Part shown: piece by piece, positions 1 to 46,623 of the stretch | How positions within the stretch are numbered: position 1 is the first letter of the stretch | Layout: every line of letters starts with the position of its first letter | DNA from: Blastocatellales bacterium | Lineage (GTDB): Bacteria; Acidobacteriota; Blastocatellia; RBC074 | Direction of reading: 5' to 3' | Length of the DNA stretch: 64,000 nucleotides | Assembly: GCA_050247435.1 (NCBI GenBank) | Contig: JBFWUF010000008.1 | Coordinates: 22,704-86,703 of the forward strand | Program-made: the position numbers and the translations under genes | Notes under the pieces: generated by a model | The model's input: the letters and a program-made list of their open reading frames with translations, nothing else | Database searches by the model: none | Told to the model about the DNA's origin: nothing

Positions 1-308
1 TGTCTCAAACGGCTGCCGATCTGCTCAAAGAAATTGAAAATGCGAGCGACGGCAAGCTGCGGTTTCTGCGCTGGGCAATGTACGGGAACAATCAGCCACA
101 GCACCCAATTCACAAATTGTCCTCTCAGGAAGCGGAAAGAGTTTGGGAAGCCATCAAAAGCAAGCCTGCCAGACCCTATGCAATGGCGGCGTGAGTCAGT
201 TCAAAGCGCCATCCCGTTCACAAAGACAACCAAAGGAATCGAGCGGGAGATAAGCCGTGCGATTCGCAACCAACTCATCATTCACATTTACCAGAAAGGA
301 ACAACATC

Positions 309-725
309 ATGTCAGCATACGCAGTTATCTCGGGGCGTCTTGGCGTTGAGCCAGAATTGCGGTTCACGAACAGCGGCACGCCGGTCATCAATCTTTCCAT
401 CGCCAATAATCGCAGCGTCAAAGTTGGCGACAAGCGTGAATCAATTGCCGATTGGTTCAAAGTGACGGTTTTCGGGCGCGACGCCGAGATCATCAATCAG
501 CACGCGAGAAAAGGTAGCGCGCTCGCTTTCAACGGGCGATTGCAGAACGAGAAGTACGTAGATCGTGACGGCAACCAGCGCACCTCGACCATTCTCGTGG
601 CGAGCAGCTTTGAGTTCATGCCGACGGCGAAGCGTGACGAGGGCAATGCAGACGGCGCGACCAAGAATGACACCGGAGTCGAGACTGTCGTGGGAAAAGA
701 AACCGAGGACGACATTCCGTTTTGA
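309..725 (+). CDS. ssb: single-stranded DNA-binding protein
   Basis: 138 aa with an OB-fold-like N-terminus and an acidic C-terminal tail ending in DDIPF, the canonical SSB tail. AAAGGA RBS before the ATG. Confidence 0.9.
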   Translation: MSAYAVISGRLGVEPELRFTNSGTPVINLSIANNRSVKVGDKRESIADWFKVTVFGRDAEIINQHARKGSALAFNGRLQNEKYVDRDGNQRTSTILVASSFEFMPTAKRDEGNADGATKNDTGVETVVGKETEDDIPF

Positions 726-758
726 AGCGCCGCCCAAAACGAGCGTTCTTCGCTTTGA

Positions 759-792
759 GGATGCTTCTGCTAACTGTGGAAGCATCCTTTTT
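759..792 (+). terminator. rho-independent terminator after ssb
   Basis: Stem GGATGCTTC (759-767) pairs with GAAGCATCC (779-787), with an 11-nt loop. A TTTTT run follows at 788-792. Confidence 0.5.
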
Positions 793-867
793 CGCAGAGA
801 GTGGTCTGTTAATGTCTCAGGTATTGGCGGTTGGTAATTGGGCAAAAAACAGAAAGGAGTTTTTGCT

Positions 868-1365
868 GTGATTACCATCGTCAATCGAAAGACCTGGCGT
901 GGCGAGAGCGTCTACGTTGGGCGACCAAGTGTTCTGGGAAACCCATTTTGCATCGGCAAAGATGGGGAGCGTTCAACCGTAATTTCGAAGTATCGCCGCT
1001 GGCTTTGGAATGAACTCCAACGAGGATCGGGTCTCGTCTTTGATGAGCTTCACCGGCTTGCGAAGTTGGCCAAGTCTGGTGATCTCATTCTTGCTTGTTG
1101 GTGTTTTCCCGAAAAGTGCCACGCCGAAACTATCAAAGCGGCCGTTGAATGGATCAGCAGTCAATCTCAACAGAAACGGAGTGAAACTATGTCGGACAAT
1201 CAGAATGAAATTACCGTAGAGAGACAATGCCATTGCTGCGGAAGCTACGATGGCGACCCATACGCGATTTTGAGCAACGGATACTGCATCCCGTGTGATG
1301 AGGGCGCGAAAATCTCGTGCCTCGAAACCATCAGCCAACAACAATCATCGCCAGGCTTACAATGA
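868..1365 (+). CDS. DUF4326-family protein with a C-terminal Cys-rich (zinc-ribbon-like) extension
   Basis: Motifs VYVGRP, GNPF and ACWCFPEKCH are typical of DUF4326. The C-terminus contains C-x-CC...C-x2-C. The GTG at 868 has an AAAGGAG RBS 8 nt upstream; the ORF-track start at 838 is a TTG without an RBS. Confidence 0.6.
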   Translation: MITIVNRKTWRGESVYVGRPSVLGNPFCIGKDGERSTVISKYRRWLWNELQRGSGLVFDELHRLAKLAKSGDLILACWCFPEKCHAETIKAAVEWISSQSQQKRSETMSDNQNEITVERQCHCCGSYDGDPYAILSNGYCIPCDEGAKISCLETISQQQSSPGLQ

Positions 1366-1396
1366 AACCGCGGCCATCGTTGTGATGCGAGCGGTC

Positions 1397-1762
1397 TCAT
1401 TGCTGCGATCTCGGAAAGGCATCGCTGGATGATTCTGCCTTTCCATCAGAGAGCGGCTTTTCAAGCTTCGCGGGTTTCTCAACTTTCGCAGGTTTCGTTT
1501 TGTTCCGGCTCTCGCTGTTCTTCTTTTGCAGCCACTGCCGGAAGCCCTTGTCCGCATCGAACAGCCGCCGCATTCCCTTGTCAACCACATCGTCAGGAGT
1601 GGTTTCTCGGCCAGTCACATCCCTGACGTAGGCGACGTAATCCCGTAGGTTTGCCAACACTGTCCAACTCAGCTTGAACGACTCTCTTTCAGCGGCGATT
1701 TCATCGAAGTTGATCAGCGGAACCGAGGCGCCGCCCGTTTCTTTTTTCTTTCCTGTCGGCAT
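1397..1762 (-). CDS. hypothetical protein (leading-region gene)
   Basis: 121-aa ORF starting MPTGKKKE with an AAGGAG RBS 8 nt upstream. Lys/Glu-rich C-terminus. No recognizable motif. Confidence 0.4.
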   Translation of the reverse strand: MPTGKKKETGGASVPLINFDEIAAERESFKLSWTVLANLRDYVAYVRDVTGRETTPDDVVDKGMRRLFDADKGFRQWLQKKNSESRNKTKPAKVEKPAKLEKPLSDGKAESSSDAFPRSQQ

Positions 1763-2141
1763 AAATTCATCTCCTTGATGATTGGTTTTCGGGAACAAAT
1801 CCTGCTCTGGATTTGAAGACACTTCCCATTGAGCAAGAGCCATTCCATCGGAGTTTTCCTACTCGCCATTTCCAGCCGGATCAGATTAGGTTGTCACGTT
1901 GCATAAAGGGTTTTGAGCTAAAGGAGCCACTCTCAGCGAAGGGATTAATGCTCGCCGCAAATGGGTGAAGGGCGACGACAACATTTCACCAGACCTGCCT
2001 CAAAATGACCCGACATTTTTCCAGAGCAGCGGCAAAAGCGATTGGTACACCTGAGCGCAAATCATCTGCTAACAAGTGGGGCAGTGGATGAGGTCTACCA
2101 ATGCTCGCAAATCAAAGCCGCTACAAGCGTTATCAGGTCTT

Positions 2142-2176
2142 TCAGGTCTGCGATTGTATTTGCTGGGCAGACCTGA
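2142..2176. promoter_or_regulatory. candidate oriT / nic-site hairpin
   Basis: Perfect 10-bp inverted repeat: TCAGGTCTGC (2142-2151) and GCAGACCTGA (2167-2176), with a 15-nt loop. It is preceded by a CAGGTCT direct repeat. It lies in the 450-bp intergenic region just upstream of the RHH-like gene and the relaxase. Confidence 0.3.
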
Positions 2177-2296
2177 CGCGCCAAATGAATCAAAGGCTGA
2201 AGATAGCCGGAGACCGACGGCACGATGGTTGCCCATTTGTCATTACTGGCGAGGCTCAAGGAAAGCCGCATTCAATGAAGCGATGGAGGGCTGACA

Positions 2297-2857
2297 ATGC
2301 CGATTCGGAACAGGCCAAGACTGGTGGCTTCCACGTCGAGTACGACCAAACTTTTCGTGGACGATCTGCGCGAGGTCGGCAGCCTTTCGCGTGACGAAGA
2401 AAAGAGCCGGAGCGACGTAATTCGAGAGCTTGTCCACGAGGCATTGCGCCAACGCAGATTGCGCGCGCTGGGGCGAGACGAGAGCGAAAACCACGTGCGC
2501 AAAATCTATCAGGAGACCGTCGCCGAAGCCATCGCCCCAGTGATAAAGGAATTCGCCGATCTTCGTCAGCAATTGGCAATCGTGGCGGCGCAATCCGAAG
2601 TGAGTGTGACGTCAGACGGCGCGACAAAAAACTACGAGGTGATGCTGACGCTCTTATCGCATCTGCTGCGCCGGTCAATCGTGACCGACAACGTTGTCAA
2701 GGTGCTGATGACCGTCGGCATGCAAAAGGACGGCGTTGATTCCGAAGAGATCAGAAAACAACTCGCGGTTCAGGATGAGACAGCGATACAACAGGCACGC
2801 GAATTGATTCAGAAGCTTCCCGGAGATTACCCACACGCGATTCTGTCTGAAGGTTGA
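2297..2857 (+). CDS. hypothetical protein, possible ribbon-helix-helix relaxosome accessory protein
   Basis: 186 aa, directly upstream of the relaxase. The segment SRSDVIRELVHEALRQRR resembles RHH/CopG-type DNA-binding helices. Weak evidence. Confidence 0.4.
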   Translation: MPIRNRPRLVASTSSTTKLFVDDLREVGSLSRDEEKSRSDVIRELVHEALRQRRLRALGRDESENHVRKIYQETVAEAIAPVIKEFADLRQQLAIVAAQSEVSVTSDGATKNYEVMLTLLSHLLRRSIVTDNVVKVLMTVGMQKDGVDSEEIRKQLAVQDETAIQQARELIQKLPGDYPHAILSEG

Positions 2858-2872
2858 TGAGAACTACGAGAT

Positions 2873-5245
2873 TTGCGCGAAGAGCAGCAGCAGGTCAATG
2901 CGATGAAAGTTGTCGTCGTCGTCAAAAAGGGATTGGGAGGCAGCGGCGTCAGTCAGGCGGCTCGCTACGTTTCCACACGTGAGCGCGACGAAGAGCGCGA
3001 AGGTCAGGAAGCGCGCAAGCTCTTCTCAGAGAATGAAGAGCGATTGAACCATTCTCAGGCCAATCGTCTGCTCGGCGATGGACGCGATCCGAAGACGGAT
3101 GACGTGCTGCATCTCGTCATCAGCTTTCACCGGGAAGAAGATTTCAATCAGTTGGGAATGGATGAGGAATCACGGCTCGACGGAGTTCGGAAAACGACGC
3201 GCGGCACGCTGAAAGAGATGACCGATGCGCTTCACGCAGAGAGGCTGCGCTGGGTCGCTGGCATTCACCGCAATACCGACAATCCGCATGCTCATCTGCT
3301 CATCCATCGTGACTATGTTGATCGGCAGACGGGACGCACAAAACGTTTGGACACTTTGCCCAAAGAATTGCGCGTTAGCTGGGAGAAAGCGCCGGACGGA
3401 AAGCGCATCATCAATCCCGGCCTGTTCAGCCAGACCTTTGAAAAACATCTCGATCAGAACATCAAGCAGTTCACGAACGAGCAGCAAAGAAAAAGCCAGG
3501 AAGAACGAGTAGAACGCACCACACTCGGCCAGGCGATGGTCGCCTCCGACCGCATTGAGCAATTGCGGGAATCTTTCCGGGCGGCTGTCACCTTTGGCGA
3601 GTGGCGTCGCTACCAGGTGGTTGATGAGCAGGGCCGGAGCCGATTGATTTCTGAATACGATCTGCGGCAAAGAGCCGGTGCGATTGGCAGGCAGATGACG
3701 GCGCAGATAAAGTTCAACCTGCCTGCCGAGACACGCGCACAAATGCGGTGGGAAGCTGAAGCGCAGGAGATCGGCAGGTATGGCGGCGTGATCAAAAAGA
3801 TTCATGTCATGCGTCTGGCCGATCTCAACTCTGCCGAGTTGAATTTGCAACAAGCCATCTCAGCTTCGCGGCCCGCCATAAGCAAATCGGTTGCAATCAG
3901 AGAAAAGTATGGAACTGCCGGATTGCCGATTTCAACGCCGATCCTTTCACGCGCAGACCTGGGACAGTTGCAGAACCGCGCGATCTTTCTTGCAGATGCA
4001 GAGAAGCTGAACAAGCTGGAGGAGATTCGTGTGACGCTGGCCACTGAAAAAGGCGAGCCAGCGCGCCTGGACACGGAAACAGGGCGGCTGCGAGCGCAGC
4101 GTTTCGTCGCGCGCTCACGCCTGGTCGTCGAGCAGCAAACTGCTGCCCGCTTTGAAGAGGCAAAACACATTCGGCAATGGGGTGTTGGCAACTGTGAACA
4201 CCAGACGAAATATTCTCTCGCCGGAATTGAATCGGCGCTGGCTTCCGCGTCCGACCAAGCAAAGTTTATCGGCGCGCGAAGCCTTCACTGGAACGACGAG
4301 AAGCGTGAAGTGGCGCGCGAGAAAGCCGATGAGTTGAGCCGGCAGCGCGTCGAAGTCCTGAGCCGGATTGCAGACGAGCGCGGGAAGCTTTCAGAAGAAG
4401 TAAAGCGCCGCGCTGAAGTGGTCAAAGCCCTTGATGAAATTTATGCAGGAGAGAAAGAACGATACCGCAAGGAAGGCCGCAAATTGCCAGCGATGCTCTT
4501 CACCGAGCAGGATTTGAGAGAACTCGATGCACACGCCGTTCGTCGTCACGATCCGGGAGTTTATCGAACGCTGACAACCATCGAACGGGATTACGATGCG
4601 CACAGCCATCGCGATCCGAAGGAGGTTGTCCGTGAGCGATTAAGCTGCGCCGGCGCGCGCGAACTAATGGCCGGAATTGAGGTGCGTGAGTCCCAGGCAA
4701 AGCTGGAAAGATTCAACGAACGCCGCACCCAGATGATGGTGATTACGCAAGAAGGACACGGGCCAGAAATCACGCTCGCCCGCTTGGCTGACGTTGAGCC
4801 GAAATCGCCGCTGGAGCAGCTCTTCAAACCTTTGCTGACACGAAGCGAGAAGTATCAGCGAGTCGCGGCAGCGGTCGAAAAATACGGCGAGCGCCTTCAG
4901 CAACAACACAAACAAAACCAAGCCACGTTTGCCGTGCTGGCTGAAGCCGCCCGGAGCTACGAGCAGGATTTCATCCGGTTGAATCCGGGGCAGCCAAACC
5001 CACGTCCGCAATTCACGGCTCGTGAAATCAGCAGGCTCGAATTACAGATCATCAAAGAGAACGATCCGGCGCTTCGTGAACACTATGCGAAGTTCTATCA
5101 CGAGGCGTTGGAAGAACCGCGTCCAGGGTTTTCACGCGCAATCACTCTCAACCCGACAGAAGGCAAACAGATTCTTGATCTGAAGCGCGACGTGCCGCTC
5201 TTCAGAGATGCTGATCACCAGCACGCGACAAGTCTTGAACGGTGA
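2873..5245 (+). CDS. conjugative relaxase (MobA/VirD2-type, MOBP/MOBQ-like) with a long uncharacterized C-terminal extension
   Basis: N-terminus MKVVVVVKKGLGGSGVSQAARYVSTRE carries a candidate catalytic Tyr. The three-His relaxase motif is HRNTDNPHAHLLIHRD. The true start is probably the ATG at 2903; the ORF-track start is a TTG at 2873. About 480 aa after the relaxase domain have no recognizable motif. Confidence 0.8.
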   Translation: MREEQQQVNAMKVVVVVKKGLGGSGVSQAARYVSTRERDEEREGQEARKLFSENEERLNHSQANRLLGDGRDPKTDDVLHLVISFHREEDFNQLGMDEESRLDGVRKTTRGTLKEMTDALHAERLRWVAGIHRNTDNPHAHLLIHRDYVDRQTGRTKRLDTLPKELRVSWEKAPDGKRIINPGLFSQTFEKHLDQNIKQFTNEQQRKSQEERVERTTLGQAMVASDRIEQLRESFRAAVTFGEWRRYQVVDEQGRSRLISEYDLRQRAGAIGRQMTAQIKFNLPAETRAQMRWEAEAQEIGRYGGVIKKIHVMRLADLNSAELNLQQAISASRPAISKSVAIREKYGTAGLPISTPILSRADLGQLQNRAIFLADAEKLNKLEEIRVTLATEKGEPARLDTETGRLRAQRFVARSRLVVEQQTAARFEEAKHIRQWGVGNCEHQTKYSLAGIESALASASDQAKFIGARSLHWNDEKREVAREKADELSRQRVEVLSRIADERGKLSEEVKRRAEVVKALDEIYAGEKERYRKEGRKLPAMLFTEQDLRELDAHAVRRHDPGVYRTLTTIERDYDAHSHRDPKEVVRERLSCAGARELMAGIEVRESQAKLERFNERRTQMMVITQEGHGPEITLARLADVEPKSPLEQLFKPLLTRSEKYQRVAAAVEKYGERLQQQHKQNQATFAVLAEAARSYEQDFIRLNPGQPNPRPQFTAREISRLELQIIKENDPALREHYAKFYHEALEEPRPGFSRAITLNPTEGKQILDLKRDVPLFRDADHQHATSLER

Positions 5246-5272
5246 GAAGCGCGTGCAGCCGTCATAGCAATC

Positions 5273-8023
5273 ATGAGTGACAGAGAAACTTTCAATTCGG
5301 ATTTGAGGTTGATGGAACTAGCCGCGCGCAACCCTTCGCTCGGCGGGCGCGAACTGTTCCAAGAAATCATCGAACGCGGCCCTGTACTGGAAGTGATCGA
5401 GCATCCTCAGGCGCGAAATCCGCGCGCAGCATTCATTTCAAATGAGATTGACCATCCTGATCATCGAACTCCGGTTGAGCAAGCGAACTGGCTGAACGAA
5501 CAGAGTCAGGCCATGCGTGACCTGTATGAACGTGGGGCCGGGATCAAAGGCGAGGTGTTGGTCATTCCCACTGAAGAATACGAACTGAGCGAAGAACGCG
5601 AGACGCCGTTCATCACGACTCTTTCCTATGCGCTGAGAAAGATTGGCGACGTTGAGAGGGCACGTGAGTTTCACGCGCTGGCGCTCGCTATCAGCGGTGA
5701 AACGGCTGACGCACGCACACAGATCGCAGTGTTCAAAACCTACTATGACCGGATCGCGCGTGGCGAACGAGAACAGCGTTTCCGCAAAGGAAATGAGGCT
5801 GAACGAGCCGGAGCATTGACGCAGACGCTTGAGGAGATGCGTGTGATCGCTGCTGAGATGGCGAGGCTTGAAACCCGAGAAAGCGTAGACGCCGTTCAAA
5901 CAGCAGAAGATCGAGAAGATGACATTCCAGAAAACCGGCGGAACACTGCTGCGCACCGAATCAGTTTGCGCGATGAATCGCTACGCCTGCCCGCAGGGTT
6001 GAGCTATGAACAGAAAGAACGACTCGTCAGCAGAACGATCCCGGAAATTGATCGCCGACTTGAGCGCGGCGTTAATCGTGAAGCTCTCTTCAAGGCGATT
6101 GACAGAGCGATGTTCCGGCCCGATCCAGCCAAATATAGGCGTAAACTCGCAGAGCTTACTGGCACGCCCAAAGACGAGAACCCCGAACGTGCGGTCAGCA
6201 AAGATGAGTATCTCGAAAGCCAGCGGACATTGCTCCAGTTGTGTGAAGAAGAGCGTCTTCATCTGCGCGAATTGAAGGCCACGCACGATGGGAATGAACT
6301 GGAACCTCACCAGTATGGGCGTCTCAGCCAGGTTGATAATCTGGCTCGTCGGCTCAGACAAGGGATAGGCAGAAATGTTTCGGATGAGAGGCCTGATAGC
6401 GCCGCGCATTCGCGCCTGTTTGTGAGCGTGCCGGAACGGGGTGTCGGGGAGAATGCGCTTCGTCTGCCCGTGAGTAGCGTAAAGGTCTACGAGACGATGG
6501 CAAAGATTGCAGCAGGAGAGAAACTATCCCTGCAAACCTGGGCTGGCAAGGATGGCCCCGAAGTCAGGCTGGCTTTGACGGAACGTGAGGCCGATGAGCG
6601 AAGCAGAATCGGGGCTTTCCTCAAGAACTATGTTGGTGAGCGATTGCGCGATCCGGAGACGCGCTCACTCAACACTTCTTCTGTTTTCCGAGATGCACGT
6701 GCCGCAATCTTTAGCGCTACTACACCAGAAGCACTGGGCCGCGTCGCGGCTGATTTGCTGCGCGTCAATGAACGCCGAAGCGGGGAATTACGACAGCATC
6801 GCGTCGCGCCGGAGAAGTATCCGCTTCCGATAGTGATGCCGCTGAACACACGGGAGCGAAATCTGCTTTTCAATGGCCGTGCGCCGGAGCATCACACGCC
6901 GGAAATGCGCGAGCTACGGCTGAATTATGGGCTGTCAAGAAGGGAGCGTACTGCGCGGATCGCCGACCTTCGTGAAGGAAGGATAGAATCATCTGAAGTT
7001 CTCAAGACGATGCTTAAAGAACTGGAAACAAGAACAACAGCCAAGGCCATCGCGCATTTTCAGGCGAGCATCATCAACGAAAAGATGAACAGCGAAGGAA
7101 GCGTGAATCTTCACCTGCTGAATCAAAGAATCGCGCCCCACGAGCGGACCTTCCTTTATGAGCTTAGTGAAGAAAGAAAGAGAGAGTTAGTGAGATTGCC
7201 GTCTGCTGGGCGATCCGAAGTTGTCAGAGACAACGACCTTGCCGAACCGCCTGTCACTCGCGTCTTCGGTGCGATTCCCAGAGAAAACCGCACCTTTCGT
7301 GAATACATGGCGAATATGGGAAGCATCGAACGGCAACTGCTGAGTGAAGCATTGATTAAGCGAGGAACTGAGTTTGAAAAAGCAGTTTCAGAACAATCCA
7401 GGGACAGGCTGACCATCACCGAAGCGCGCGCGTTACTTCCTGAAGCGCAGCAACGAGAAATCCGCTTGCGCGCCAGAAATCTGGCGTGGCAAAGTCTCGT
7501 GCCGGAGGAGACGTTCGACCGTAATCCTTCGCCCGAAGCCGTGCGGATCAGCGAGACAATCGCTCACATCCAGGAGCATCTTCAGGAAAGAGCGAGCATC
7601 GCCCGAACTGTCCGCACTGATTTTACGGCTGAGCGGATTCGCTCAGAAGAAACAGCAAGGCAAGCGCCAGGGGCGCACAGGCTGGTGGAGCTTGATCGTT
7701 ACGCGGCGCAGACTCGAGAAGATGTCTATCATGCTTTTGAACTGCTTGATATTCAGCGCCGCGACCTTGAATTTGCTCGCACACATCACACTGGCCGAGT
7801 TAAACAAGAAGACATTTGGGATCGCGGCACAGGTGTCCGACCGGAAATATCAAAGGAATCAAACTCGATTTCCACCTCGATGTACGTCACCTCAGATCGT
7901 GAATGGCATTTCGACAGTTTGCGTGAAGCGCTCAATGTTGAGTTGAGCAGATTGCAACCCGAAGAAAGAGGGCGCGAGATTGGACGGCACCACCAGGTGG
8001 ATGATTTAACGCGAGATCATTGA
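5273..8023 (+). CDS. large (916 aa) hypothetical protein downstream of the relaxase
   Basis: Long ORF rich in charged residues (R/E), predicted helical. No Walker A motif, nuclease motif or TM segment was recognised. Clean codon usage; 27 nt after the relaxase stop. Confidence 0.5.
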   Translation: MSDRETFNSDLRLMELAARNPSLGGRELFQEIIERGPVLEVIEHPQARNPRAAFISNEIDHPDHRTPVEQANWLNEQSQAMRDLYERGAGIKGEVLVIPTEEYELSEERETPFITTLSYALRKIGDVERAREFHALALAISGETADARTQIAVFKTYYDRIARGEREQRFRKGNEAERAGALTQTLEEMRVIAAEMARLETRESVDAVQTAEDREDDIPENRRNTAAHRISLRDESLRLPAGLSYEQKERLVSRTIPEIDRRLERGVNREALFKAIDRAMFRPDPAKYRRKLAELTGTPKDENPERAVSKDEYLESQRTLLQLCEEERLHLRELKATHDGNELEPHQYGRLSQVDNLARRLRQGIGRNVSDERPDSAAHSRLFVSVPERGVGENALRLPVSSVKVYETMAKIAAGEKLSLQTWAGKDGPEVRLALTEREADERSRIGAFLKNYVGERLRDPETRSLNTSSVFRDARAAIFSATTPEALGRVAADLLRVNERRSGELRQHRVAPEKYPLPIVMPLNTRERNLLFNGRAPEHHTPEMRELRLNYGLSRRERTARIADLREGRIESSEVLKTMLKELETRTTAKAIAHFQASIINEKMNSEGSVNLHLLNQRIAPHERTFLYELSEERKRELVRLPSAGRSEVVRDNDLAEPPVTRVFGAIPRENRTFREYMANMGSIERQLLSEALIKRGTEFEKAVSEQSRDRLTITEARALLPEAQQREIRLRARNLAWQSLVPEETFDRNPSPEAVRISETIAHIQEHLQERASIARTVRTDFTAERIRSEETARQAPGAHRLVELDRYAAQTREDVYHAFELLDIQRRDLEFARTHHTGRVKQEDIWDRGTGVRPEISKESNSISTSMYVTSDREWHFDSLREALNVELSRLQPEERGREIGRHHQVDDLTRDH

Positions 8024-11000
8024 TGACTCGGTCTTTGTGCCCAGCGCCGTGACAGTAGCTTTCCGTTCCAACTTGCCCCAACCAATAATCGCTCCTTTCA
8101 TTGCCGTCCAGACAGAGCGCGCCATGACGTAATACATTACCTGGCGATAACAGAATCGCTGCAGGAACAGCCACGACAGCAGGCTCCATTGCTCGCGTTT
8201 TTCGAGCAGAAACGCGAAGCCAGCGGCCATCCAATCCACTGCCAGAAATAGCGCATAGTAAAAGAGCGCCTGTTTGAGATTGGTGATCGCGTATTCGCCT
8301 GGATGTTCCCATCGCTCGAGCGCTGCTGAAATTAGCGTCCATACGAACATCAAATCCATAAGTGGCGAAATCAACGGAAAAAGAATCTGAAAAATCCAGA
8401 CGTTTGGCATAGCGACGAAACCTAGCGCGCCGTATCGCGAATTGAAGAGCGCATCGCGATGTTTCCACATACACTGCAACGTGCCAAACGACCAGCGAAA
8501 TCGTTGTTTGGCCAACCCGCGCACCGTATCAGGAGCTTCCGTCCAGGCAACCGCGTCTTCTTCATATCCGATCCTGTAACCAAGCTTGCGAACTTTAAGC
8601 GTCAGATCCTGGTCCTCGGCCAGCGTGTCTGAGGCGAAACCGCCGAGTTGTTTGAGCAGGTCGCGCCGCCACGCGCCGACCGCGCCTGGCACGACCGTGA
8701 TGCAGTTGAGCGCGGCGAAGGCGCGGCGATCTAGATTCTGCGCCGTGATGTATTCGAGCGCCTGCCAGCGCGTCACCAGATTGATGCGATTGCCGACTTT
8801 GGCGTTCCCGGCAATCGCCCCGACGCGCGGATCGTCAAAGCGGCGGGCGAGCGCGCCGACCGTTTGCGGAGGAAAGATCGTGTCGGCGTCCAGCGCGACA
8901 ACGATTTCGCCTTGCACGAATTGCAACCCGAAATTTAGCGCTTCGGCTTTGCCGCCGTTAGTTTTAGTCAGCAGACGCACGCGCGATTCGGCGGCGAACT
9001 GTTCACGCACAACCTCGCTCGTGCCGTCGGGCGAACCGTCGTCCACGACGATGATTTCGAAGCGGGGATAGTCCGACGCCAGCAAACTGTGGATCGTTTG
9101 CGCGATCACTTTCTCTTCGTTGTAGGCGGCGATGATAACGGAAACGAAGGGCGCTTCTGCGGCGCTCACAGTTTCCCGCGTTCGCCGCCTTGACCGTCGT
9201 TGTTGCGCCAGCGCCAGCGCGCCGATGAAGACGAGGCGCGCCAAACCGAGCACGATGCCGATCAGGAAAACCCAGCGCAGCGCCCAACCTCCAACCGCCA
9301 TTGCATAAAAGGTCACGGCGTCGGCTTTGGAAAAGAAGCCTCTCTCGGGCGGTAGCGGCGGCATAGCCTGATCGCGCGTCATCCCGGCCAGTTGTGAAAC
9401 CGTCGTAAAGCGATAGCCTTTGGTGCGCAGATCGCGAATCAACCTCGGCAACGCCTCGACGGTTTGCGCGCGGTCGCCTCCGCCATCGTGCAGCAATACC
9501 ACCTGTCCGCGCTCGTCGGGGTTGGGGTTTTCGATTCCCGCCATCGTGCGCTGGACGATGGCGTCCGCACCGGGCAAAGTCCAGTCGTCGGGATCCACGC
9601 GGAGTCCGGTGATGATGTAACCCAGGCGATTCGCAATCGCCGCCGGCTCGACTTCGTCCGGCGTTTGAGGTTCAGCGTCGCCGAAATACGGCGCGCGAAA
9701 CAGCCGGGTTGACCTTCCGGTTAGCGATTCGATCAACCGCTGCGTCGCGTTGAGTTCCAGTTCGGTGATGCGGCCCGGAATTTCGCCGAGGTTCGGATGC
9801 GTGTACGAATGATTGCCGATGTCGTGGCCTTCGGCGACGATGCGTTTGACGAGACCGGGATTCCCCTGCCCGTTCTGGCCGATGATGAAGAATGTCGCGG
9901 GAACGTTTTCGCGTTTGAGGATATCGAGGATTTGCGGCGTCCACTTCTCGTCCGGCCCGTCGTCGAAGGTCAAGGCGACCTGGCCCGGACGCCAGCCCGT
10001 GCGTCGAATGACGTAAGAGGAGGGAATGCTCAGGTATTGCGCGGAACGAATCAGCCCGCTCTTCGCATCCAGCGTGATTTCCCGCGAGCCTTCCCTGGGC
10101 GAAGCCTCGAATTGCAGAACCTCGCCCATCCCCTCGAAGTCCACGTCGTAACCGTACACAATCTGCTTCAATCCATCAGGAGAAGCCTCCATCTGCTGAT
10201 TGCCGAAAATAGCCCATAGCGACGGGTCTTCGGAACCCATCCGCCAGAGCGCGAATCCCGCGACGTTGTAGCCGCGCGCAACGCGCATCTGGTTGAAAGC
10301 GGTCACGCCGTCGAGAAACCAAACCGTATGCTCGGCGCCGCCTTCATCTCCGTAGCGGAAATAAGGATTGCGAGTCGCCGGATCGAACTTGATGCTGGCC
10401 TCGCTGTCGCGCGCTTCGAGTACGGCTTCCTGAAAAGTCAGCTCTTCGGTTTCTTTGCCTTTGCTCCAGCCATAGCCGTAGCCGCCGATGCAGACGACCG
10501 TTTTCGCGGGATCGAGTTCTTTCATTCGTTTGGCCAGCGTCGCCTCGAACCAGGGCTGCCCGGCGATGCTGCCCGGATCGCTTTCATTCCAATGCTCGTC
10601 GTAGGCCATCAAGAGGAGAGAATCATTGGCTGCGGCGTAATCCCGGTAATTCCACGCCGGGTCGTCGAAGGGCGCGGCCTGCATCACCGTCCAGTTCCGC
10701 GCCTTGAATGCTGCGTGAAGCTGTCGCACGAACGCAAGCAGATTTTTCTGCGAAGTGTTCGGGACTTCCTCAAAGTCAATGCAAACACTCTGGAAGCCAT
10801 TGTCGCCGACTACGCGCGTCAGTTCACTGACCAGCCGCGTGCGCGCGGTTTCATCGCTGATTTGTTGGGCGAGCGTTTGCGGTTCCCACTTCCCATCCTT
10901 CGAATTGTGAATCATCGGGATGATCGGCAAGTCGGAACGTTGTTTGCGAACCAGATTGAGCGCGCGCGGATCAACTTCAAGCGCCAATGGATGATCGCCC

Positions 11001-11449
11001 GTTTGCAGCCGAATCCATTCGGGGATCAATTGGTCAAGTTGCGGCAAATGGCGTTTGAGCGATTGGTAGCTCGAATCGTCCCAGTTGACATAAAACCCGC
11101 TGGCCAGCGGGCGCGTGGGCGAATGACTCACGCTCACGGCCGGCGTGGGCGTTTTGCCTTGATGAGCTATCGTCGCCCGGTCAAGCGCGGCCCGTGCACG
11201 CGCGGCTTTCCGCTCGCGGCGATCAGCGATCAACTGCGGCGCTTGCGGTTTGGCGTCCACCACGCCGGGCAGGACGGACAACTGTCGCAGATTCAATTGC
11301 GGCAATGTCGGATTGATGAGTATGCTGGCGACGAAGATCGCTGCAAGCGCCGTGACGATGGCGGCCAATGGCCAACCGGCGCGGCGCAGGTTGCGGCTTC
11401 GGCGGCCCAGTGGATCGTAAAAAACAGGAAGACTTTTGCCAGTTTGCAT
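8006..11449 (-). CDS. multidomain exopolysaccharide synthase: N-terminal GH18-like domain + CE4 (NodB) polysaccharide deacetylase + GT2 processive glycosyltransferase (PgaB/PgaC-like fusion)
   Basis: N-terminal TM anchor. GH18-like motifs YVNWDD and CIDFEEV. CE4 motifs TFDDGPD, HSYTHP and RAPYFG. GT2 motifs VSVIIAAYNEE, VVDDGSPDG, LDADT and QRFRW (the QxxRW motif). C-terminal TM helices. Confidence 0.85.
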   Translation of the reverse strand: MQTGKSLPVFYDPLGRRSRNLRRAGWPLAAIVTALAAIFVASILINPTLPQLNLRQLSVLPGVVDAKPQAPQLIADRRERKAARARAALDRATIAHQGKTPTPAVSVSHSPTRPLASGFYVNWDDSSYQSLKRHLPQLDQLIPEWIRLQTGDHPLALEVDPRALNLVRKQRSDLPIIPMIHNSKDGKWEPQTLAQQISDETARTRLVSELTRVVGDNGFQSVCIDFEEVPNTSQKNLLAFVRQLHAAFKARNWTVMQAAPFDDPAWNYRDYAAANDSLLLMAYDEHWNESDPGSIAGQPWFEATLAKRMKELDPAKTVVCIGGYGYGWSKGKETEELTFQEAVLEARDSEASIKFDPATRNPYFRYGDEGGAEHTVWFLDGVTAFNQMRVARGYNVAGFALWRMGSEDPSLWAIFGNQQMEASPDGLKQIVYGYDVDFEGMGEVLQFEASPREGSREITLDAKSGLIRSAQYLSIPSSYVIRRTGWRPGQVALTFDDGPDEKWTPQILDILKRENVPATFFIIGQNGQGNPGLVKRIVAEGHDIGNHSYTHPNLGEIPGRITELELNATQRLIESLTGRSTRLFRAPYFGDAEPQTPDEVEPAAIANRLGYIITGLRVDPDDWTLPGADAIVQRTMAGIENPNPDERGQVVLLHDGGGDRAQTVEALPRLIRDLRTKGYRFTTVSQLAGMTRDQAMPPLPPERGFFSKADAVTFYAMAVGGWALRWVFLIGIVLGLARLVFIGALALAQQRRSRRRTRETVSAAEAPFVSVIIAAYNEEKVIAQTIHSLLASDYPRFEIIVVDDGSPDGTSEVVREQFAAESRVRLLTKTNGGKAEALNFGLQFVQGEIVVALDADTIFPPQTVGALARRFDDPRVGAIAGNAKVGNRINLVTRWQALEYITAQNLDRRAFAALNCITVVPGAVGAWRRDLLKQLGGFASDTLAEDQDLTLKVRKLGYRIGYEEDAVAWTEAPDTVRGLAKQRFRWSFGTLQCMWKHRDALFNSRYGALGFVAMPNVWIFQILFPLISPLMDLMFVWTLISAALERWEHPGEYAITNLKQALFYYALFLAVDWMAAGFAFLLEKREQWSLLSWLFLQRFCYRQVMYYVMARSVWTAMKGAIIGWGKLERKATVTALGTKTESSMISR

Positions 11450-16743: not shown

Positions 16744-19700
16744 TTAAGATTGGGCTGGCCGCTTCGTCGCGCCAAAGCGCAGGTAAAGCGCCGGCATCAG
16801 AAAGAGATTCAGCGCCGTTGAACTGAACAGCCCGCCCAAAATCACCACAGCCAGCGGGTGTTCAATCTCGTGTCCGGGTTTATTGCCGCCGATGACGATG
16901 GGCAGCAGCGCCAGGCCTGTCGCCAGCGCCGTCATCAGGATCGGCGCCAACCGTTCTTCAGAGCCGCGCAGGACAAGCTCCTGACCGAACTCCTGACCTT
17001 CTTCGGTTTCCAGGTGGCGGTAGTGGCTGACCAGCATGATCCCGTTGCGCGCGGCGATGCCCAGCACCGTCACAAATCCCACCAGCGAACCCAGCGATAG
17101 AATCCCACCTGTCAACAGCGTGGCCGCGACTCCGCCAACGAGCGCGAATGGCAGGCTGAAGAAGACCAGAGCCACCAACCGGGGCGAGCGAAAATCGGCG
17201 TGCAGCAAAAGTAGAATGCCGAGCAGCGCCAGCCCGGAAAGCGCCAGCAGCCGGTTACGCGATTCCTGCCGGGCCGCGTATTCGCCCAGGAATTCCGGGT
17301 GATAGCCGCGGTCGAATGACAGCGATTTGACTTTGGTTTCGATCTGGCGTGCCACGCTGCCCAGGTCGCGCCCTTTCACGTCGCAGGTCACGTCAATGCG
17401 GCGGGACGCGCCTTCGCGTTGCACGATGTTCAGCGCGGGCGCGATCTGCACGTCCGCCACATCGCCCAAAGGAACATCACCGCCCGCTGCCAAGCTGATT
17501 CTCAACCTGCGCACGGCTTCCAGGTCAGTGCGCGTGCTCGGCGCGCCCCAGACGACCACGTCATTGATTTGCTGCGCCTCGTAAAGCTCTCCGACTTTCT
17601 GTCCCTTGATCAGCGTAGTCGCCGCGCGGCGCACATCGCCCGGCGTCAGGCCGAACCGCGATGCTGCGTCTTGCCGCAACCGCACTTCGATCTGCGGAAC
17701 CAAAACCTGCTGTTCGATTTTCAGATTGGATACGCCTTGCACACCGCCGATTGTCTTACCGACTTCGGCAGCTTTCGTGCGCAGCCCCTCCAATTCGGGG
17801 CCGTAAATGCGCACGACGATGGAAGCGCCCGCGCCGGTCAGGACTTCCTTGATGCGCTCCTTCAAATAGGTCAGCAGGTCGCGCACCAACCCTGGATACC
17901 CGTCCACGACTTCCTGGATTTTGGTTACGGTCGGCTCGTAAGGCGCGTTCGGGTCAATGCTAATCCACAACTCGGTGAAGTTCGGACCGACGACTTCGTC
18001 CGCGACTTCGGCGCGGCCAATGTGCGAGCCAAAGTTGCGCACGCCGGGAATGGCGCGCAGTTCCTTACTCACCGCGATGGTGATGCGGTCCATCGCTTCG
18101 AGCGACGTGCCGGGCTTTTCAACCCAGTGCATCAGGAAGTCCGTCTCCTTGAAGTTCGGCAGAAACTCTTCGCCTAGTAACGGAACCACCGCCGCCGTCA
18201 GTCCGAACAGGACGAGCATCGAGATGACGGCTGTTTTCGGCTTGTTGATGAACGAGGGCAGCAGGCGGCGGTAGTGGCGTTTGAGAAAGCGAGTCAGCGC
18301 AGGCTCCGGGCGCTCGCAGTTCGCCGCGCGCGGCAACAGCAGCAATGACAGCGCGGGCGTCAGCGTCAGGGCCACGCCCAGCGACGCCAGCACCGCCAGC
18401 ACGTAAGAAATCGCCAGCGGGCGGAAGAACGAACCCGACAGCCCGTCCAGAAAAAAGATCGGCAGGAAGACCATCACCACGATCAGTGTGGCGAAGACGA
18501 TGGCGCTGCGTACTTCCAGCGAGGCTTTCAACACCACCGAGAATGCAGATTCAGGATTTCCCGCTTCGCGGTTCAGCCGCAGCCGCCGCATGATGTTTTC
18601 GACATCAATGATGGCGTCATCCACGACTTCGCCGAGCGCAATCACCAAGCCCGCAATGACCATCGTGTTGATCGTGTAGCCGCGCCAATACAAGACAAGC
18701 GTCGCCGCCAACAGCGAGAGCGGAATCGCCGATAAACTGATGACCGCCGTTCGCCACTCAAACAGGAAAGCGACCAGCACGGCGATGACCAGCAAACAGC
18801 CGATGAACAACGCCGTCCGCAAATTCCGCAGCGCCACTTCAATGAAAGTCGCAGGGCGAAAGATGGTTGGATCCACTTCGACATCTTTCAATCCGGGCTT
18901 GAGCGCATTGAGCGCGGCTTCGACATTGCGCGTCACGTCCAGCGTGTTGCCTTCCGGTTGCTTTTCGACGATCAGCAGGATGCCGGGGCCGTCGTTGATG
19001 ATCGCGTCGCCGATCGGCGGCGGATGGCCTTCGACGATCTCGGCGACGGCGCCCAGGGCGAGCGGCGCGCCGTTGCGGAAGGCAACGGGAACGCGCGCCA
19101 GGTCCTGCGGCTGTGTAACGGCGGCCAAGTGCGCGACGGACAATCGCTGATTCGGCGTGTCCACGAAACCACCCGCAGCGACGGCTACGGCATCGCGGGT
19201 CGCGCGCTCGACATCGGCCAGCGTGACGTTGTGCGCGCGCAACCGCTCCGGATCAACCAGCACCTGCATCTGGCGGTCGCGCTGGCCCCAGATCGCCACG
19301 TTCGCCACGCCGGGCACGGCCATCAAGCGCGGGCGAAGCGTCCAGCGAGCCAACGCTGAAAGCTCCATCTGTGAAAGCGTTTTCGATGACAGGCCGATCT
19401 TCATCGCGCGGCTGGTGGAGGATAGCGGCTGCAAGATAACGGGCGGGTGCGCCGCCCCAGGCAGTTGCGGGGCGACCAGCGCCAGCCGCTCCTGCACGCG
19501 CTGCCGCGCCGGCATCAGGTCCGTGTCCTGCTGGAAGATCAAAACCACCGACGACAGGCCGAGCACGGATTTCGAGCGCAGCGTCTTCAATTGCGCCGTG
19601 CCGTTCAGCGCGTTCTCAATCGGCACGGTGATCAGGCTTTCGACTTCGGCGGTCGAAAAGCCAGGCGCTTCGGTCTGAATCTCGACCAGCGGCGGCGCGA

Positions 19701-19821
19701 ATTCGGGGAACACGTCAAGCGGCGTCGTGCGCACCACGCGCAGGCCGACGATCATCAACAGGATCGCGACGACGACGACGATGACGCGCAGTTGCAGAGA
19801 GGTTGAGACGAGCCAGTTCAT
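16744..19821 (-). CDS. czcA: CusA/CzcA-family heavy-metal efflux RND permease
   Basis: 1025 aa with 12 TM helices and two large periplasmic loops. The N-terminus ([24 protein letters not shown]) is the HME-RND hallmark. Confidence 0.95.
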
Positions 19822-19827
19822 TCAGAA

Positions 19828-21051
19828 TTATTTTCCCGTGCCGAATTCCGTACCGAAGATTTCAGCGGCTCCGGCGGTGACGACTTTTGCGCCCAAAGCC
19901 GGGCCGCGAGCCAGCACGGCCCGCGAATCCACGACGCGGCGCACTTCCACGCGGCGGCGCACATATTGCTGCGGCGCGGTGTTTTCATAAACCCAAGTCC
20001 CGCCATGGATGTCGTGCAAAACTGCCGACCACGGAACGACCAGGCTCTCTGCTGACGCTTTTTCCAAAAGCGTCACACTCATCTTCTGACCGGGCCGTAG
20101 GGAGCCGTCTGTGTTGGCCAACTCAAAATATAGGTCGGCGGTGTCGTTGGCGGGGTTGGCGGTAGGTGGCGCGTTTACTGGCCGAGCAACGCGCGATGGC
20201 GCGCCGAGCGGATCATTCAGCATCCGCACGCGCGCGGTCTGATTGCGATGGATCGCGTTCAAATCACCGACGTATACCGGCACGCGAATCCAAACCACGG
20301 CGAGGTTGACGACTTCGAACAGCGGTGCGCCGCCGGTCACGGTCTGGCCCGGACTGACGAACAATTTCTGGATCATCCCGTCGCGCGGGGCGACGACGGT
20401 GACCGCGACATCGCCGGAAATGGGCGCTTTGTCGTAACGCTCAAGCCGCGCGCGCGCCGTTTTCAAATCATTTTCTGCGACGTTTAATTCTTCGCGCGCC
20501 TGCTCAACGGCTTTCTCGCTGCCGGCGCGATCGCGCAGCAATTGCTCGGCGCGGTTGAAGCGAACGCGCGCGGCGTCCACGCGCGTCTGCGCATTGGTCA
20601 CATCGCGATCCAGTTGCACGCGCAGGTCACGCTCCGGCGCGAGCAGCGGCGTCAGGCGAAAAACCACCTGTCCTTTGCGCACAAACATCCCGACCGACGG
20701 CGGCGCGTCGGACAAAAGCGTCCCGCCCAACGGCGCCGACACGCTAATGGTTCGATCCGGCGGAAGTGTGATCTCTCCGGCAAAGGTGCGTGCCTCAGCG
20801 ACTCTTTCGATTGCAACTGGCGAGGTTGTGACGCCCAATCGTTGTTCAGCCTGCGGCGAGAGTTTAACCGTGGCCAAGTCAGTTTCTTTGACCGCGTTCT
20901 CGACTTTGGCAGCGGGCGCGGTTTTCTGACTTTCGGCTGCTTGTGGTTTTGAACAGCCTGACAGCCAGAGCGTAGAAGTTATGATGATCAGAATTTGCCC
21001 AATCATCACTTGCAAGAGGAGTGGGCGGCGCGCGGGATCAATGATTCGCAA
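19828..21051 (-). CDS. czcB: RND efflux periplasmic adaptor (CzcB/CusB-like)
   Basis: Lipoprotein-like N-terminus (LSGCSKP). Coiled-coil hairpin region, beta-barrel and MP domains. Immediately upstream of czcA. Confidence 0.85.
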   Translation of the reverse strand: MRIIDPARRPLLLQVMIGQILIIITSTLWLSGCSKPQAAESQKTAPAAKVENAVKETDLATVKLSPQAEQRLGVTTSPVAIERVAEARTFAGEITLPPDRTISVSAPLGGTLLSDAPPSVGMFVRKGQVVFRLTPLLAPERDLRVQLDRDVTNAQTRVDAARVRFNRAEQLLRDRAGSEKAVEQAREELNVAENDLKTARARLERYDKAPISGDVAVTVVAPRDGMIQKLFVSPGQTVTGGAPLFEVVNLAVVWIRVPVYVGDLNAIHRNQTARVRMLNDPLGAPSRVARPVNAPPTANPANDTADLYFELANTDGSLRPGQKMSVTLLEKASAESLVVPWSAVLHDIHGGTWVYENTAPQQYVRRRVEVRRVVDSRAVLARGPALGAKVVTAGAAEIFGTEFGTGK

Positions 21052-22450
21052 TCAGCCTCCTTCCGACGCTGCGCTCCAACGCGATTAGCGCGCGCTTGGT
21101 GGCGACCTGGAAATCGGCCTCGCGCAGGCGTTCATCGGAGTAGCGGCGCGCGGTTTCGAGCACGAAAAGATAAGCCACGTCGCCTGAGCGGTAAGAGGTT
21201 TGAGCCAGGCGAATGTCCTGTTCCAGCGGTGGCAGCACACGCGCGCGCCACAGATCGTGCGCCGCACGCGCCTGTCTGAGTTGTGCGTATGCCTCTCTCA
21301 CTTCCGAAACGATTCGTTGCCGGGCGGCAATCAATTGTTTGGCGGCGCGCTCGATCTCAGCCTCGGCGCGCGAAATATTGCCTTGATTCCGGTTGAAGAT
21401 CGGCAGATCAATCAGCAGGCCAGGCCCCTGCTCGAAGCCATTCGTCCCGCGTCCGTACTCTTTGGCGATGGCTGTGACGTTGACGATGCGCGAGCGTTCC
21501 CACTTAGCGCGCGCGCCGGCGGCTTCAATAGCCAACTCTCCAGCTATGACCTCCGGTCTGGCGTCGAGCGCCTGTTTGATCAATTCGTTGAGCGATTCTG
21601 ATTCGGAGACAGTGGGGAGCGGCGGTACTGCAGACGCCTGTACGCTGATGATCCGATCAGGCGCGGGCGTCAGCGATGTTTGCGGGACGATCAGATTCAG
21701 GTCTGGGGATTCAACGCCGAACCCTAACAACGAGCGCAATCGCTCTTTGGCCAGTTCGGCGTCTTGCGTGAAGCGGGCCTCGCGCTCTTCCGCCAGGCGC
21801 GCGTCGGTGATGGCGGCGCTCGTTTCCAATTCGCTGATGTCGCCCGCGCGCAGCCGGGCGTTGATGATAACGGCGATTTCCCGGCGCTCGTGCGTGATCT
21901 CCTCGGCGATGCCTGCGCGCGTATGGGCCGCCGCGTACTCGGCGTAAGCCAGCCGCACGTCGCGCGCCAGGTCGAGCGCGCGCGACACCAGGGTTTCGGC
22001 GACGCGTTCCTGCTCCAGTTTGGCCGCCGCCACGCGTCGGGGCCGTTGCCAGATCGCTTCGATCGGCCAGTTGGCGACTGCTTCCAGGATGCGGAAGCTG
22101 AAGGGAAAGATCATTGTCAATTGCGGGTTGGAAAGCAGCCCGGCTTGGATCACGTCGGCGCGCGCCACACCCAGCGCCGTCATCTCGGCTTGCAGCGCCG
22201 GACTGTTCCACAACGCAATCGCCACAGCCTCGTCTTCCGTCACGCCGTCGCCAAGAGAAATGCCTTCGGGCAGCGCCGGAACCTCTGACTTCGTCGCCGG
22301 GTGAAGTTTATGCCCGATTCGGCTTTCAACCTCTTTCGACACGTCGGCGGGCTGTCGTCCGGCCTGTGCCAGTACGCACGCTGGGAGCAGCATCATGGAA
22401 AAGACAATCACCAGGGGCTTCATCGTTCGTCTCCAACCTGCGCGGTTCAA
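21038..22450 (-). CDS. czcC: TolC-family outer membrane efflux protein (CzcC-like)
   Basis: 470 aa with a signal peptide and two repeats of alpha-helical coiled-coil plus beta segments. Overlaps the czcB start. Confidence 0.85.
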   Translation of the reverse strand: MNRAGWRRTMKPLVIVFSMMLLPACVLAQAGRQPADVSKEVESRIGHKLHPATKSEVPALPEGISLGDGVTEDEAVAIALWNSPALQAEMTALGVARADVIQAGLLSNPQLTMIFPFSFRILEAVANWPIEAIWQRPRRVAAAKLEQERVAETLVSRALDLARDVRLAYAEYAAAHTRAGIAEEITHERREIAVIINARLRAGDISELETSAAITDARLAEEREARFTQDAELAKERLRSLLGFGVESPDLNLIVPQTSLTPAPDRIISVQASAVPPLPTVSESESLNELIKQALDARPEVIAGELAIEAAGARAKWERSRIVNVTAIAKEYGRGTNGFEQGPGLLIDLPIFNRNQGNISRAEAEIERAAKQLIAARQRIVSEVREAYAQLRQARAAHDLWRARVLPPLEQDIRLAQTSYRSGDVAYLFVLETARRYSDERLREADFQVATKRALIALERSVGRRLIANH

Positions 22451-46618: not shown

Positions 46619-46623
46619 AGATC

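Follow-up and report, generated by a model that had tools for sequence, protein, structure and literature searches.

A MOBP/MobL-class relaxase that is probably split over two adjacent genes in mobile elements of Acidobacteriota

Two adjacent genes in a 64,000-nucleotide stretch of DNA (the whole stretch analysed, hereafter the window) from a Blastocatellales metagenome-assembled genome (MAG; 172-kb contig JBFWUF010000008.1) are best read, by comparison with related proteins, as one split relaxase. The first gene (2873..5245 on the forward strand, 790 amino acids (aa) if translated from its TTG start) encodes a relaxase with a long C-terminal extension, and the second, ORF2 (5273..8023, same strand, 916 aa), encodes a protein whose module is covalently joined to the relaxase domain in sister elements. 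An earlier sequence-only reading of this DNA had located both open reading frames (ORFs) correctly and had described two independent unknown regions; they appear instead to be two modules of one relaxase family, fused in sister lineages, which together make up about 1,500 residues. Searches with either protein gave some 90-100 or more homologues (E<=1e-3), many of them with E=0, and the gene pair is well above chance expectation. Relaxases are key to the classification of mobile elements and the prediction of their transfer, and their non-catalytic parts are poorly understood. To our knowledge, the gene-transfer machinery of Acidobacteriota, an abundant soil phylum, has barely been described, and literature searches found no description of this relaxase/ORF2 family.

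The product of the first gene is an HUH relaxase of the MOBP/MobL class. It scored above the Pfam thresholds for MobL (33.1 bits versus a cutoff of 28.5, the match being restricted to positions 57-172 of the 383 in the model) and for Relaxase (26.3 versus 24.6), but missed the NCBIfam subfamily cutoffs for MobP3 (42.4 bits versus 150) and MobP2 (32.3 versus 200). A metal-binding His-triad motif of the HxDxxxPHxH type was found as HRNTDNPHAHLLIHRD, and the sequence HRNTDNPHAHLLIH carries the triad by which HUH relaxases of this class are recognized. In an alignment of 55 relatives, Tyr22, His70, Ser74, His122, Asn124, Thr125, His129 and His131 (780-aa numbering) were invariant, which bears out both the three-His motif and the N-terminal Tyr pointed out earlier, and Tyr22 is predicted to be the catalytic residue. 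The AlphaFold2 model, built on an alignment of relatives (predicted local distance difference test (pLDDT) 89, predicted template modelling score 0.75), contains an HUH fold that matches TrwC, TraI, MobA, MobM and NES. Because this fold ends near residue 172 and the fusion proteins described below share only residues 1-185/204 of the relaxase, the relaxase domain is about 200 aa long and the extension about 575 aa, instead of the roughly 300 and 480 aa first assigned to them.

The extension consists of three tandem repeats (approximately residues 205-395, 396-585 and 586-760), which were recognized by profile self-comparison (E 4e-15 and 2.7e-5), each folding in the AlphaFold2 model as a beta-hairpin followed by long helical hairpins. 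It is basic (pI 9.3), has no P-loop motif, and its fold matches are to generic helical proteins only. No helicase domain was detected anywhere within the relaxase polypeptide, whether as a Walker A motif or P-loop, a Pfam hit or a fold match, and neither Pfam nor fold searches found a primase domain after the relaxase domain, where the three helical repeats are located.

ORF2 can be divided into an acidic segment O2a (aa 1-284), a variable insert (aa 285-430), a basic segment O2b (aa 431-850) and a disordered tail. O2b holds the near-invariant stretch PLNxRERNLLFxGRAPEHHTxEMRELR, and further conserved blocks include RDLYERGA, IPAEExEL, GETAD and RDPETR. Charged residues make up 34% of the protein, the maximum Kyte-Doolittle value of any 19-mer is 0.85, so that no hydrophobic segment is present, and no Walker A, metal-binding or nucleotide-binding signature or internal repeat was detected. 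The AlphaFold2 model is almost entirely helical (pLDDT 80, falling below 50 at aa 849-916), in agreement with the earlier description of a highly charged, helical protein without ATPase or transmembrane signature. Both proteins were searched, as single sequences and as profiles, against Pfam, NCBIfam, PHROGs and PDB sequences; ORF2 matched nothing, nor did any part of the relaxase beyond its core. The fold search of ORF2 against solved structures likewise returned nothing similar, only generic helical matches. The absence of a known domain from these large regions, proposed earlier, was thus upheld, and the structure search that had been suggested as a possible refutation assigned neither a helicase nor a primase domain of the kinds associated with relaxases, nor any solved fold. 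The extension and ORF2 were also considered as paralogues of each other, which was rejected since BLAST and hhalign show no relation between them once the fused relaxase domain is set aside.

The link between the two proteins comes from natural fusions. Architectures were counted with segment hidden Markov models over 450 retrieved proteins, among which the window type (relaxase domain plus repeats) accounted for 86 and standalone ORF2 proteins for 145. A further 22 proteins, about 1000 aa long, consist of the relaxase domain (aa 1-185) fused straight to the ORF2 module and have no repeats. In the 15 giants (1205-2845 aa), the relaxase comes first, the ORF2 module second and the repeats last, with no extra Pfam domain. 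A neighbour-joining tree built from the relaxase domain placed the window clade inside a large relaxase-plus-repeats group; the sister of this whole group was formed by the relaxase-ORF2 fusions, and the giants were on another branch. Fusion and fission have therefore occurred more than once. The fusion seen in sister elements is strong evidence that ORF2 acts together with the relaxase. The relaxase-plus-repeats gene and, immediately after it, an ORF2 gene were found at approximately 45 loci, and an independent look-up from a distant relaxase (L076; such labels denote related loci) also found an ORF2-family gene right after it. A conserved peptide in the disordered tail of ORF2 (the WHFD peptide, Table 1) was present in 40 ORF2 proteins that stand alone and in 10 of the relaxase-ORF2 type, but in none of the 15 giants, in which the repeats follow ORF2. 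Its restriction to proteins in which ORF2 is the last module suggests that it is a candidate docking element.

The family is widespread within one phylum. A profile search of 1.84 billion representatives gave 259 clusters, and the 61 genome loci were almost all from Acidobacteriota MAGs, often with several diverged copies per genome; the source genome itself has a second relaxase-ORF2 pair (ORF2 74% identical) and a further relaxase that is 80% identical. A few loci were labelled Heliomicrobium or Heliobacteriaceae, one Gammaproteobacteria and one Actinomycetota. Elements of Blastocatellales MAGs recur in near-identical form (protein identity up to 100%) in MAGs that bear the label Heliomicrobium, Heliobacteriaceae or Clostridia (L011, L013, L014, L016-L020, L029 and L034), and the taxonomic labels of these records look unreliable. 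Among the 72,556 plasmids of PLSDB, no tblastn match was found for the whole relaxase or ORF2.

Judging from neighbouring genes, the family as a whole is conjugative. Of the 72 sequences searched (71 loci and the window), 29 had a coupling-protein gene no more than 10 kb away from ORF2, and some of these loci, such as L045-L071 from Pyrinomonadaceae and Chloracidobacterium MAGs, have the same split layout as the window. Relatives carry, beside the relaxase or ORF2, a coupling protein together with VirB1-, VirB8-, VirB10- and VirB11-like genes of a type IV secretion system (T4SS). In L009 a giant relaxase directly follows the coupling protein, and the genes upstream gave weak VirB1-, VirB8-, VirB10- and VirB11-like hits and include a gene with a faint TraG P-loop (VirB4 class). 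A relaxase-plus-repeats gene also stands directly after coupling-protein and T4SS genes at L075:370-10500. In the window, no coupling protein was found by tblastn with two coupling proteins of related elements or by Pfam scans of the large ORFs, no T4SS family was present among the large ORFs scanned, and the AAA (VirB11-like), 477-aa (TrbI/VirB10-like) and 394-aa proteins from the T4SS neighbourhood of L009 had no tblastn match, all in line with the original remark that the window lacks this apparatus. At least one MAG contains both a window-clade element (L017) and a coupling-protein-bearing relative (L034).

The explanation that we consider probable is that the relaxase is split over two genes, that ORF2 is a non-covalent subunit of it with a structural role, and that the element is mobilized in trans. 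By homology, the relaxase domain would nick the origin of transfer (oriT) of the element and remain on the 5' end through Tyr22. ORF2 would work as a non-covalent relaxase subunit in the window element because it forms the same polypeptide as the relaxase domain in sister elements. The repeats and ORF2 may hold DNA and partner proteins in the relaxosome and present the relaxase-DNA complex to the coupling protein, with the WHFD peptide on the ORF2 tail as the candidate docking element, and a separate RecD-like helicase, described below, would supply unwinding. As no transfer apparatus lies within reach of the window copy, the T4SS that mobilizes it is probably found at some other site, be it a remote part of this element or another element of the family in the same cell. 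A structural role is favoured because neither module has a catalytic fold or a nucleotide-binding motif and both look like helical scaffolds. The attachment of ORF2-family proteins to other kinds of head beside coupling-protein genes, detailed below, likewise speaks for a hub. Among the functions listed in the sequence-only reading, a scaffold is the best-fitting candidate, whereas a primase-like function is excluded by the lack of an alpha/beta catalytic fold.

Several points weigh against this explanation. Binding of the two proteins to each other, to DNA and to the coupling protein is in each case a prediction. The 10-kb surroundings of the window-clade loci yielded neither T4SS genes nor a coupling protein in any instance, and the transfer competence of this clade is putative. 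The relaxase-ORF2 fusions do not have the repeats, so the WHFD peptide is not simply a tether to them. The count of about 45 adjacent gene pairs is biased, as most of the loci were retrieved via ORF2, and at L075, reached by a second look-up from a distant relaxase, T4SS genes adjoin a relaxase-plus-repeats gene but no ORF2-family gene was detectable in the surrounding 10 kb, which means that relaxases of this type do not always have ORF2 as a partner. In addition, the near-invariant polar residues R82, E86, D146, R457, T463, R473 and H540 of ORF2 could mark an unrecognized active site.

It is possible, although unlikely, that ORF2 is a carrier or translocation module, which is recognized by the coupling protein and delivers attached or bound heads into the recipient together with the DNA. 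Such heads (relaxase, DUF4326 phosphatase, SLOG/DprA-like and DUF488 domains) would protect or establish the incoming strand, following the logic of polyvalent proteins and being anti-defence in spirit. Other ORF2-family proteins of 1500-2137 aa do have N-terminal heads (DUF4326; YpsA-SLOG/DprA-like plus DUF4326; DUF7831 plus DUF488-N3a), and they adjoin coupling-protein genes or stand just after the relaxase. DUF4326 is a rhodanese-phosphatase superfamily clade for which a role in conflict systems, the processing of phosphates derived from ADP-ribose, has been proposed and which frequently occurs in fusions with SLOG, Macro or NADAR domains (PMC9503650), polyvalent proteins that move with the DNA are known in conjugative elements (PMC5512222), and the conserved peptide in the disordered ORF2 tail would also suit a carrier. 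However, ORF2 of the window lacks an enzymatic head, its sequence shows no recognizable translocation signal, and a donor-side relaxosome hub fits the same data equally well. A more specific proposal is that a divergent VirB-like T4SS uses the ORF2 module as a previously unrecognized substrate or carrier domain, restricted to this phylum, which escorts swappable heads into recipient cells along with the transferred strand and has the WHFD peptide as its recognition element; it is regarded as similarly doubtful. The earlier suggestion of an anti-defence giant protein survives only here, as a minority reading that depends on the DUF4326/SLOG fusions.

Less probable is that ORF2, the repeats, or both are enzymes of a new fold, for example a nuclease, a strand-transfer or religation factor, or a nucleotide-modifying enzyme. 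The charged blocks named above, GRAPEHHTxEMRELR among them, are near-invariant across relatives of 25-80% identity, the core of ORF2 (aa 73-204) recurs as an independent domain in a second protein of the element (p470, see below), and no solved structure resembles ORF2, all of which would be compatible with an enzyme. Nevertheless, the confident models are almost all helical with long hairpins, as is typical of scaffolds, no metal- or nucleotide-binding signature is present, and triplication, as seen in the repeat domain, is unusual for an active site.

The gene pair belongs to a conserved DNA-processing module of about 12-13 kb, at the right end of which the window copy lies (Table 1). The order of the module across loci is a 90-aa gene, bPH_2, a RecD-like superfamily 1B (SF1B) helicase, p470, a single-stranded DNA-binding protein (SSB), DUF4326, a small reverse gene, an accessory protein of about 180 aa with a weak ribbon-helix-helix match, the relaxase and ORF2. 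Window positions 1-7644 are 82-85% identical at the nucleotide level to seven other loci, which carry the RecD-like helicase, bPH_2 and the 90-aa gene further upstream. The helicase gene was syntenic in 12 loci, including all six window-clade loci of the genome scan whose flanks reach far enough, and in window-clade relatives it is a separate SF1B gene about 5 kb upstream of the relaxase. Since the window starts inside p470, the helicase of this copy is expected to lie just outside the window, immediately upstream, and the description of the element as helicase-less was misleading in view of these relatives. The N-terminal domain of p470 (aa 28-142) is a paralogue of ORF2 aa 73-204 (family-versus-family hhalign, probability 97.2, E 4.6e-11), so that two proteins per element carry this core of about 115-130 aa; in L002, p470 is encoded at 3531-4943.

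Between p470 and the relaxase, the tail of the DUF4326 ORF (868-1365) is zinc-ribbon-like, and in L002 and L074 the gene calls divide the same region into two overlapping genes (112 and 56 aa). The small reverse gene is mostly 109-121 aa in relatives (159 aa in L072) and gave only sub-threshold Pfam hits (DUF2274, E 0.0087; Sigma70_r2, E 0.056). The intergenic region that follows is tentatively proposed as oriT: a layout of two direct repeats and then an inverted repeat is found at the same position in five related loci with different sequence, while the hairpin energy is not significant alone (z = -1.46). A gene of 167-204 aa stands directly upstream of the relaxase in the related loci with gene calls there.

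Table 1. Features of the gene pair and its surroundings, in window coordinates
Feature	Position	Strand	Remarks
p470 gene, 3' end (about 470 aa in relatives), cut by the window edge	1..195	+	tblastn of L002 p470: 92% identity at window 3-191
SSB, 138 aa, acidic tip DDIPF at end	309..725	+	Syntenic genes in L002, L006, L007 and L008 carry PF00436; nucleotide identity 82-85%
DUF4326 protein with CxxC...CxxC tail	868..1365	+	Pfam DUF4326 E 1e-19; phrog_464 E 8.6e-29; likely start GTG 868 just after AGGAG
Small divergent gene, 148-aa ORF	1397..1843	-	Position kept in L001, L002, L006, L007, L008 and L072
Candidate oriT (tentative), intergenic	1844..2296		Two direct TCAGGTCT repeats and an inverted repeat, 2142-2151/2167-2176
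Putative relaxosome accessory protein, 186 aa	2297..2857	+	Pfam RHH_1 E 5e-4, 20.3 bits versus cutoff 20.5 (weak ribbon-helix-helix)
Relaxase catalytic domain, aa 1-204	2903..3514	+	HUH-type, MOBP/MobL class; Tyr22, His122/129/131; alternative start TTG 2873
Relaxase C-terminal extension	3515..5245	+	Three tandem repeats of about 190 aa and a short disordered tail
ORF2, 916 aa, putative detached relaxase module	5273..8023	+	93 homologues; fusions to the relaxase domain; AlphaFold2 pLDDT 80; no fold match
ORF2 tail motif SDxEWHFDSLRExL (aa 874-887), candidate docking/recognition peptide	7892..7933	+	W878 and L883 near-invariant
Right-hand end of conserved module	8024..8030		blastn matches with L011, L072, L015 and L012 stop at window 8026; flanks differ
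GH18-deacetylase-GT2 gene, 1147 aa	8006..11449	-	Convergent; flanks ORF2 in the window

The right-hand boundary of the module is real. A boundary near 8023 had been suspected from the sequence, and nucleotide similarity to related loci ends at 8026, where G+C rises from 0.52-0.56 to 0.59-0.60; the earlier view of the region as the core of a mobile element is supported as well. The flanks past ORF2 vary by genome and include Czc efflux genes, an SNF2-DUF1156-DUF499 defence island, FtsH and HtrA, or an insertion sequence element. The left end lies beyond the window and beyond the 10-kb flanks of relatives; position 8411 of L072, inside a sigma-like gene, was considered as the left end and rejected as a recombination or cargo junction. 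No tRNA gene was found within the 64-kb window, and no integrase was found among the window ORFs scanned (five large ORFs in operons of the resistance-nodulation-division (RND) type were not covered) or seen in or beside the conserved module of the related loci viewed. Of the two origins considered earlier, extension of the element beyond the upstream edge is confirmed, as the window starts in p470, whereas a plasmid origin is unlikely because the contig carries chromosome-like genes over 172 kb and no PLSDB match exists.

These features of the module also bear on a reading to which we give a still lower probability, namely that the helicase-bearing clade, including the window, is not conjugative and that its elements replicate or transpose by a rolling-circle mechanism in a Helitron-like manner (HUH nuclease, SF1B/Pif1-like helicase and SSB), which the large helical modules would serve. 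The RecD/Pif1-like helicase and the coupling protein were never seen together in one 20-kb view of the 72 sequences: loci with the helicase have no coupling protein within 10 kb, and loci with the coupling protein have no helicase. The missing integrase, a right boundary that is sharp at the ORF2 stop codon with flanks differing between genomes, and the several copies per genome would also be expected of such elements. On the other hand, copies in the same genome are only 74-80% identical and are thus not recent transposition products, the relaxase clade is nested among relaxases that adjoin T4SS genes, the accessory gene and repeat-rich intergenic region upstream are arranged as in relaxosomes, and the views span only 10 kb per side.

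That an old conjugative element has left this gene pair behind as a decaying remnant, with the split being simply a broken giant relaxase, is very improbable and largely refuted by the conserved layout: despite the lack of a nearby T4SS and two ORFs in the same frame, one stop codon and nine codons apart, both ORFs are intact, the full-length split layout is kept in about 45 loci across Acidobacteriota families at 25-82% identity, the shared frame is not kept in L002, L006 and L011, and the repeats precede ORF2 here but follow it in the giants, which one stop codon cannot explain. The shared frame itself (window 5243-5275) was also considered as a sign of programmed stop-codon read-through, which was rejected because the frame relation is not conserved across related loci and is probably due to chance.

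With regard to gene starts, ATG 2903 (780 aa) is probably the likelier start of the relaxase, since the majority of homologues are 780 aa long and begin with MKVVV; the NCBI annotation starts the gene, named 'relaxase MobL', at TTG 2873. The annotation of the source MAG begins ORF2 at residue 182, giving a protein of 735 aa. As residues 1-181 of ORF2 are kept in homologues and fusion proteins, ATG 5273 is the better start, and the deposited gene call, which omits window 5273-5815, is truncated.

Beyond the module, the large ORFs of the window scanned with Pfam encode RND pumps, two-component systems, MprF, Nramp, phosphatases and one DDE transposase. The protein encoded at 8006-11449 on the reverse strand unites GH18, NodB-type polysaccharide deacetylase and PgaC-like GT2 synthase parts, and the last six codons of its gene overlap the end of ORF2, so that its 3' end lies in element-derived sequence. 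There are apparently four RND-type efflux operons with histidine kinases in the 64 kb (16744-22450, 43493-47928, 50096-54564 and 59563-63998), an unusually high density of efflux genes beside the element; two pumps, one membrane-fusion and one outer-membrane-factor gene were confirmed by Pfam, and the other two operons are suggested by gene size and order. The DDE-family transposase (DDE_5/DDE_Tnp_1; 58194-59453, forward strand) is situated between two of these operons. MprF-type lysyl-phosphatidylglycerol synthase domains were found on two reverse-strand genes 8 kb apart (27350-28366 and 36406-38085), one with the transmembrane region alone and the other with the C-terminal synthase and a lysyl-tRNA-synthetase-like transmembrane region. 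In relatives, the flanks of the module are rich in defence genes (SNF2 with DUF1156 methylase and HEPN/DUF499, AbiE, BrxC-like, SMC_N/AAA_23, NACHT and DruA) and also contain metal-resistance genes (Czc and Mer), as seen at L011:13222-22926, L001:9414-16057, L073:790-2700 and L075:14008-20500.

Taken together, two large modules have been defined that neither a Pfam family nor any solved structure matches and that are shuffled between one, two or three genes, and the family offers a natural fission-and-fusion series for asking what the accessory modules of relaxases do. Giant relaxases of up to 2,845 aa exist in this Acidobacteriota family, members of which adjoin metal-resistance and phage-defence cargo. 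Plasmid-trained tools would register a weak MobL hit only, and public annotation truncates ORF2; new profiles for both modules would improve the detection of conjugative and mobilizable elements in soil metagenomes. The finding would be more interesting still if ORF2 turned out to be a carrier.

Comparison with known systems shows both shared and distinct features. Unlike the MOBF relaxase-helicases (TraI of F and TrwC of R388), in which the helicase belongs to the relaxase, relatives encode the helicase in a gene of its own some 5 kb upstream, and the modules attached to the relaxase have neither a P-loop nor a helicase fold; unlike the relaxase-primases of the type of MobA of RSF1010, no primase domain follows the relaxase domain. 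The MOBH relaxase TraI of the gonococcal genetic island also has a big conserved C-terminal region without an assigned role, the TraI_2_C domain (PMC6736028), but it belongs to another catalytic family (HD/alternative 3H) and has no sequence relation to the proteins studied here, and a split or fusion series is not known to have been reported for it. The polyvalent proteins of conjugative elements and phages (Iyer et al. 2017, PMC5512222) are likewise very large multi-module proteins encoded beside relaxase and T4SS genes, and relatives of ORF2 similarly combine DUF4326, SLOG and DUF488 heads in one chain. However, ORF2 of the window has no recognizable effector domain in Pfam, NCBIfam or PHROGs and does not qualify as a polyvalent protein, and the module shared by the ORF2 family is a helical region without a Pfam family. 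With the MOBP relaxases (TraI of RP4) and MobL (PF18555, prototype RelLS20 of pLS20), the relaxase shares the HUH domain, the N-terminal Tyr, the Ser motif, the HxDxxxPHxH-type triad and a small accessory gene upstream, and it differs from them in that its C-terminal 575 aa form an unrelated triple repeat.

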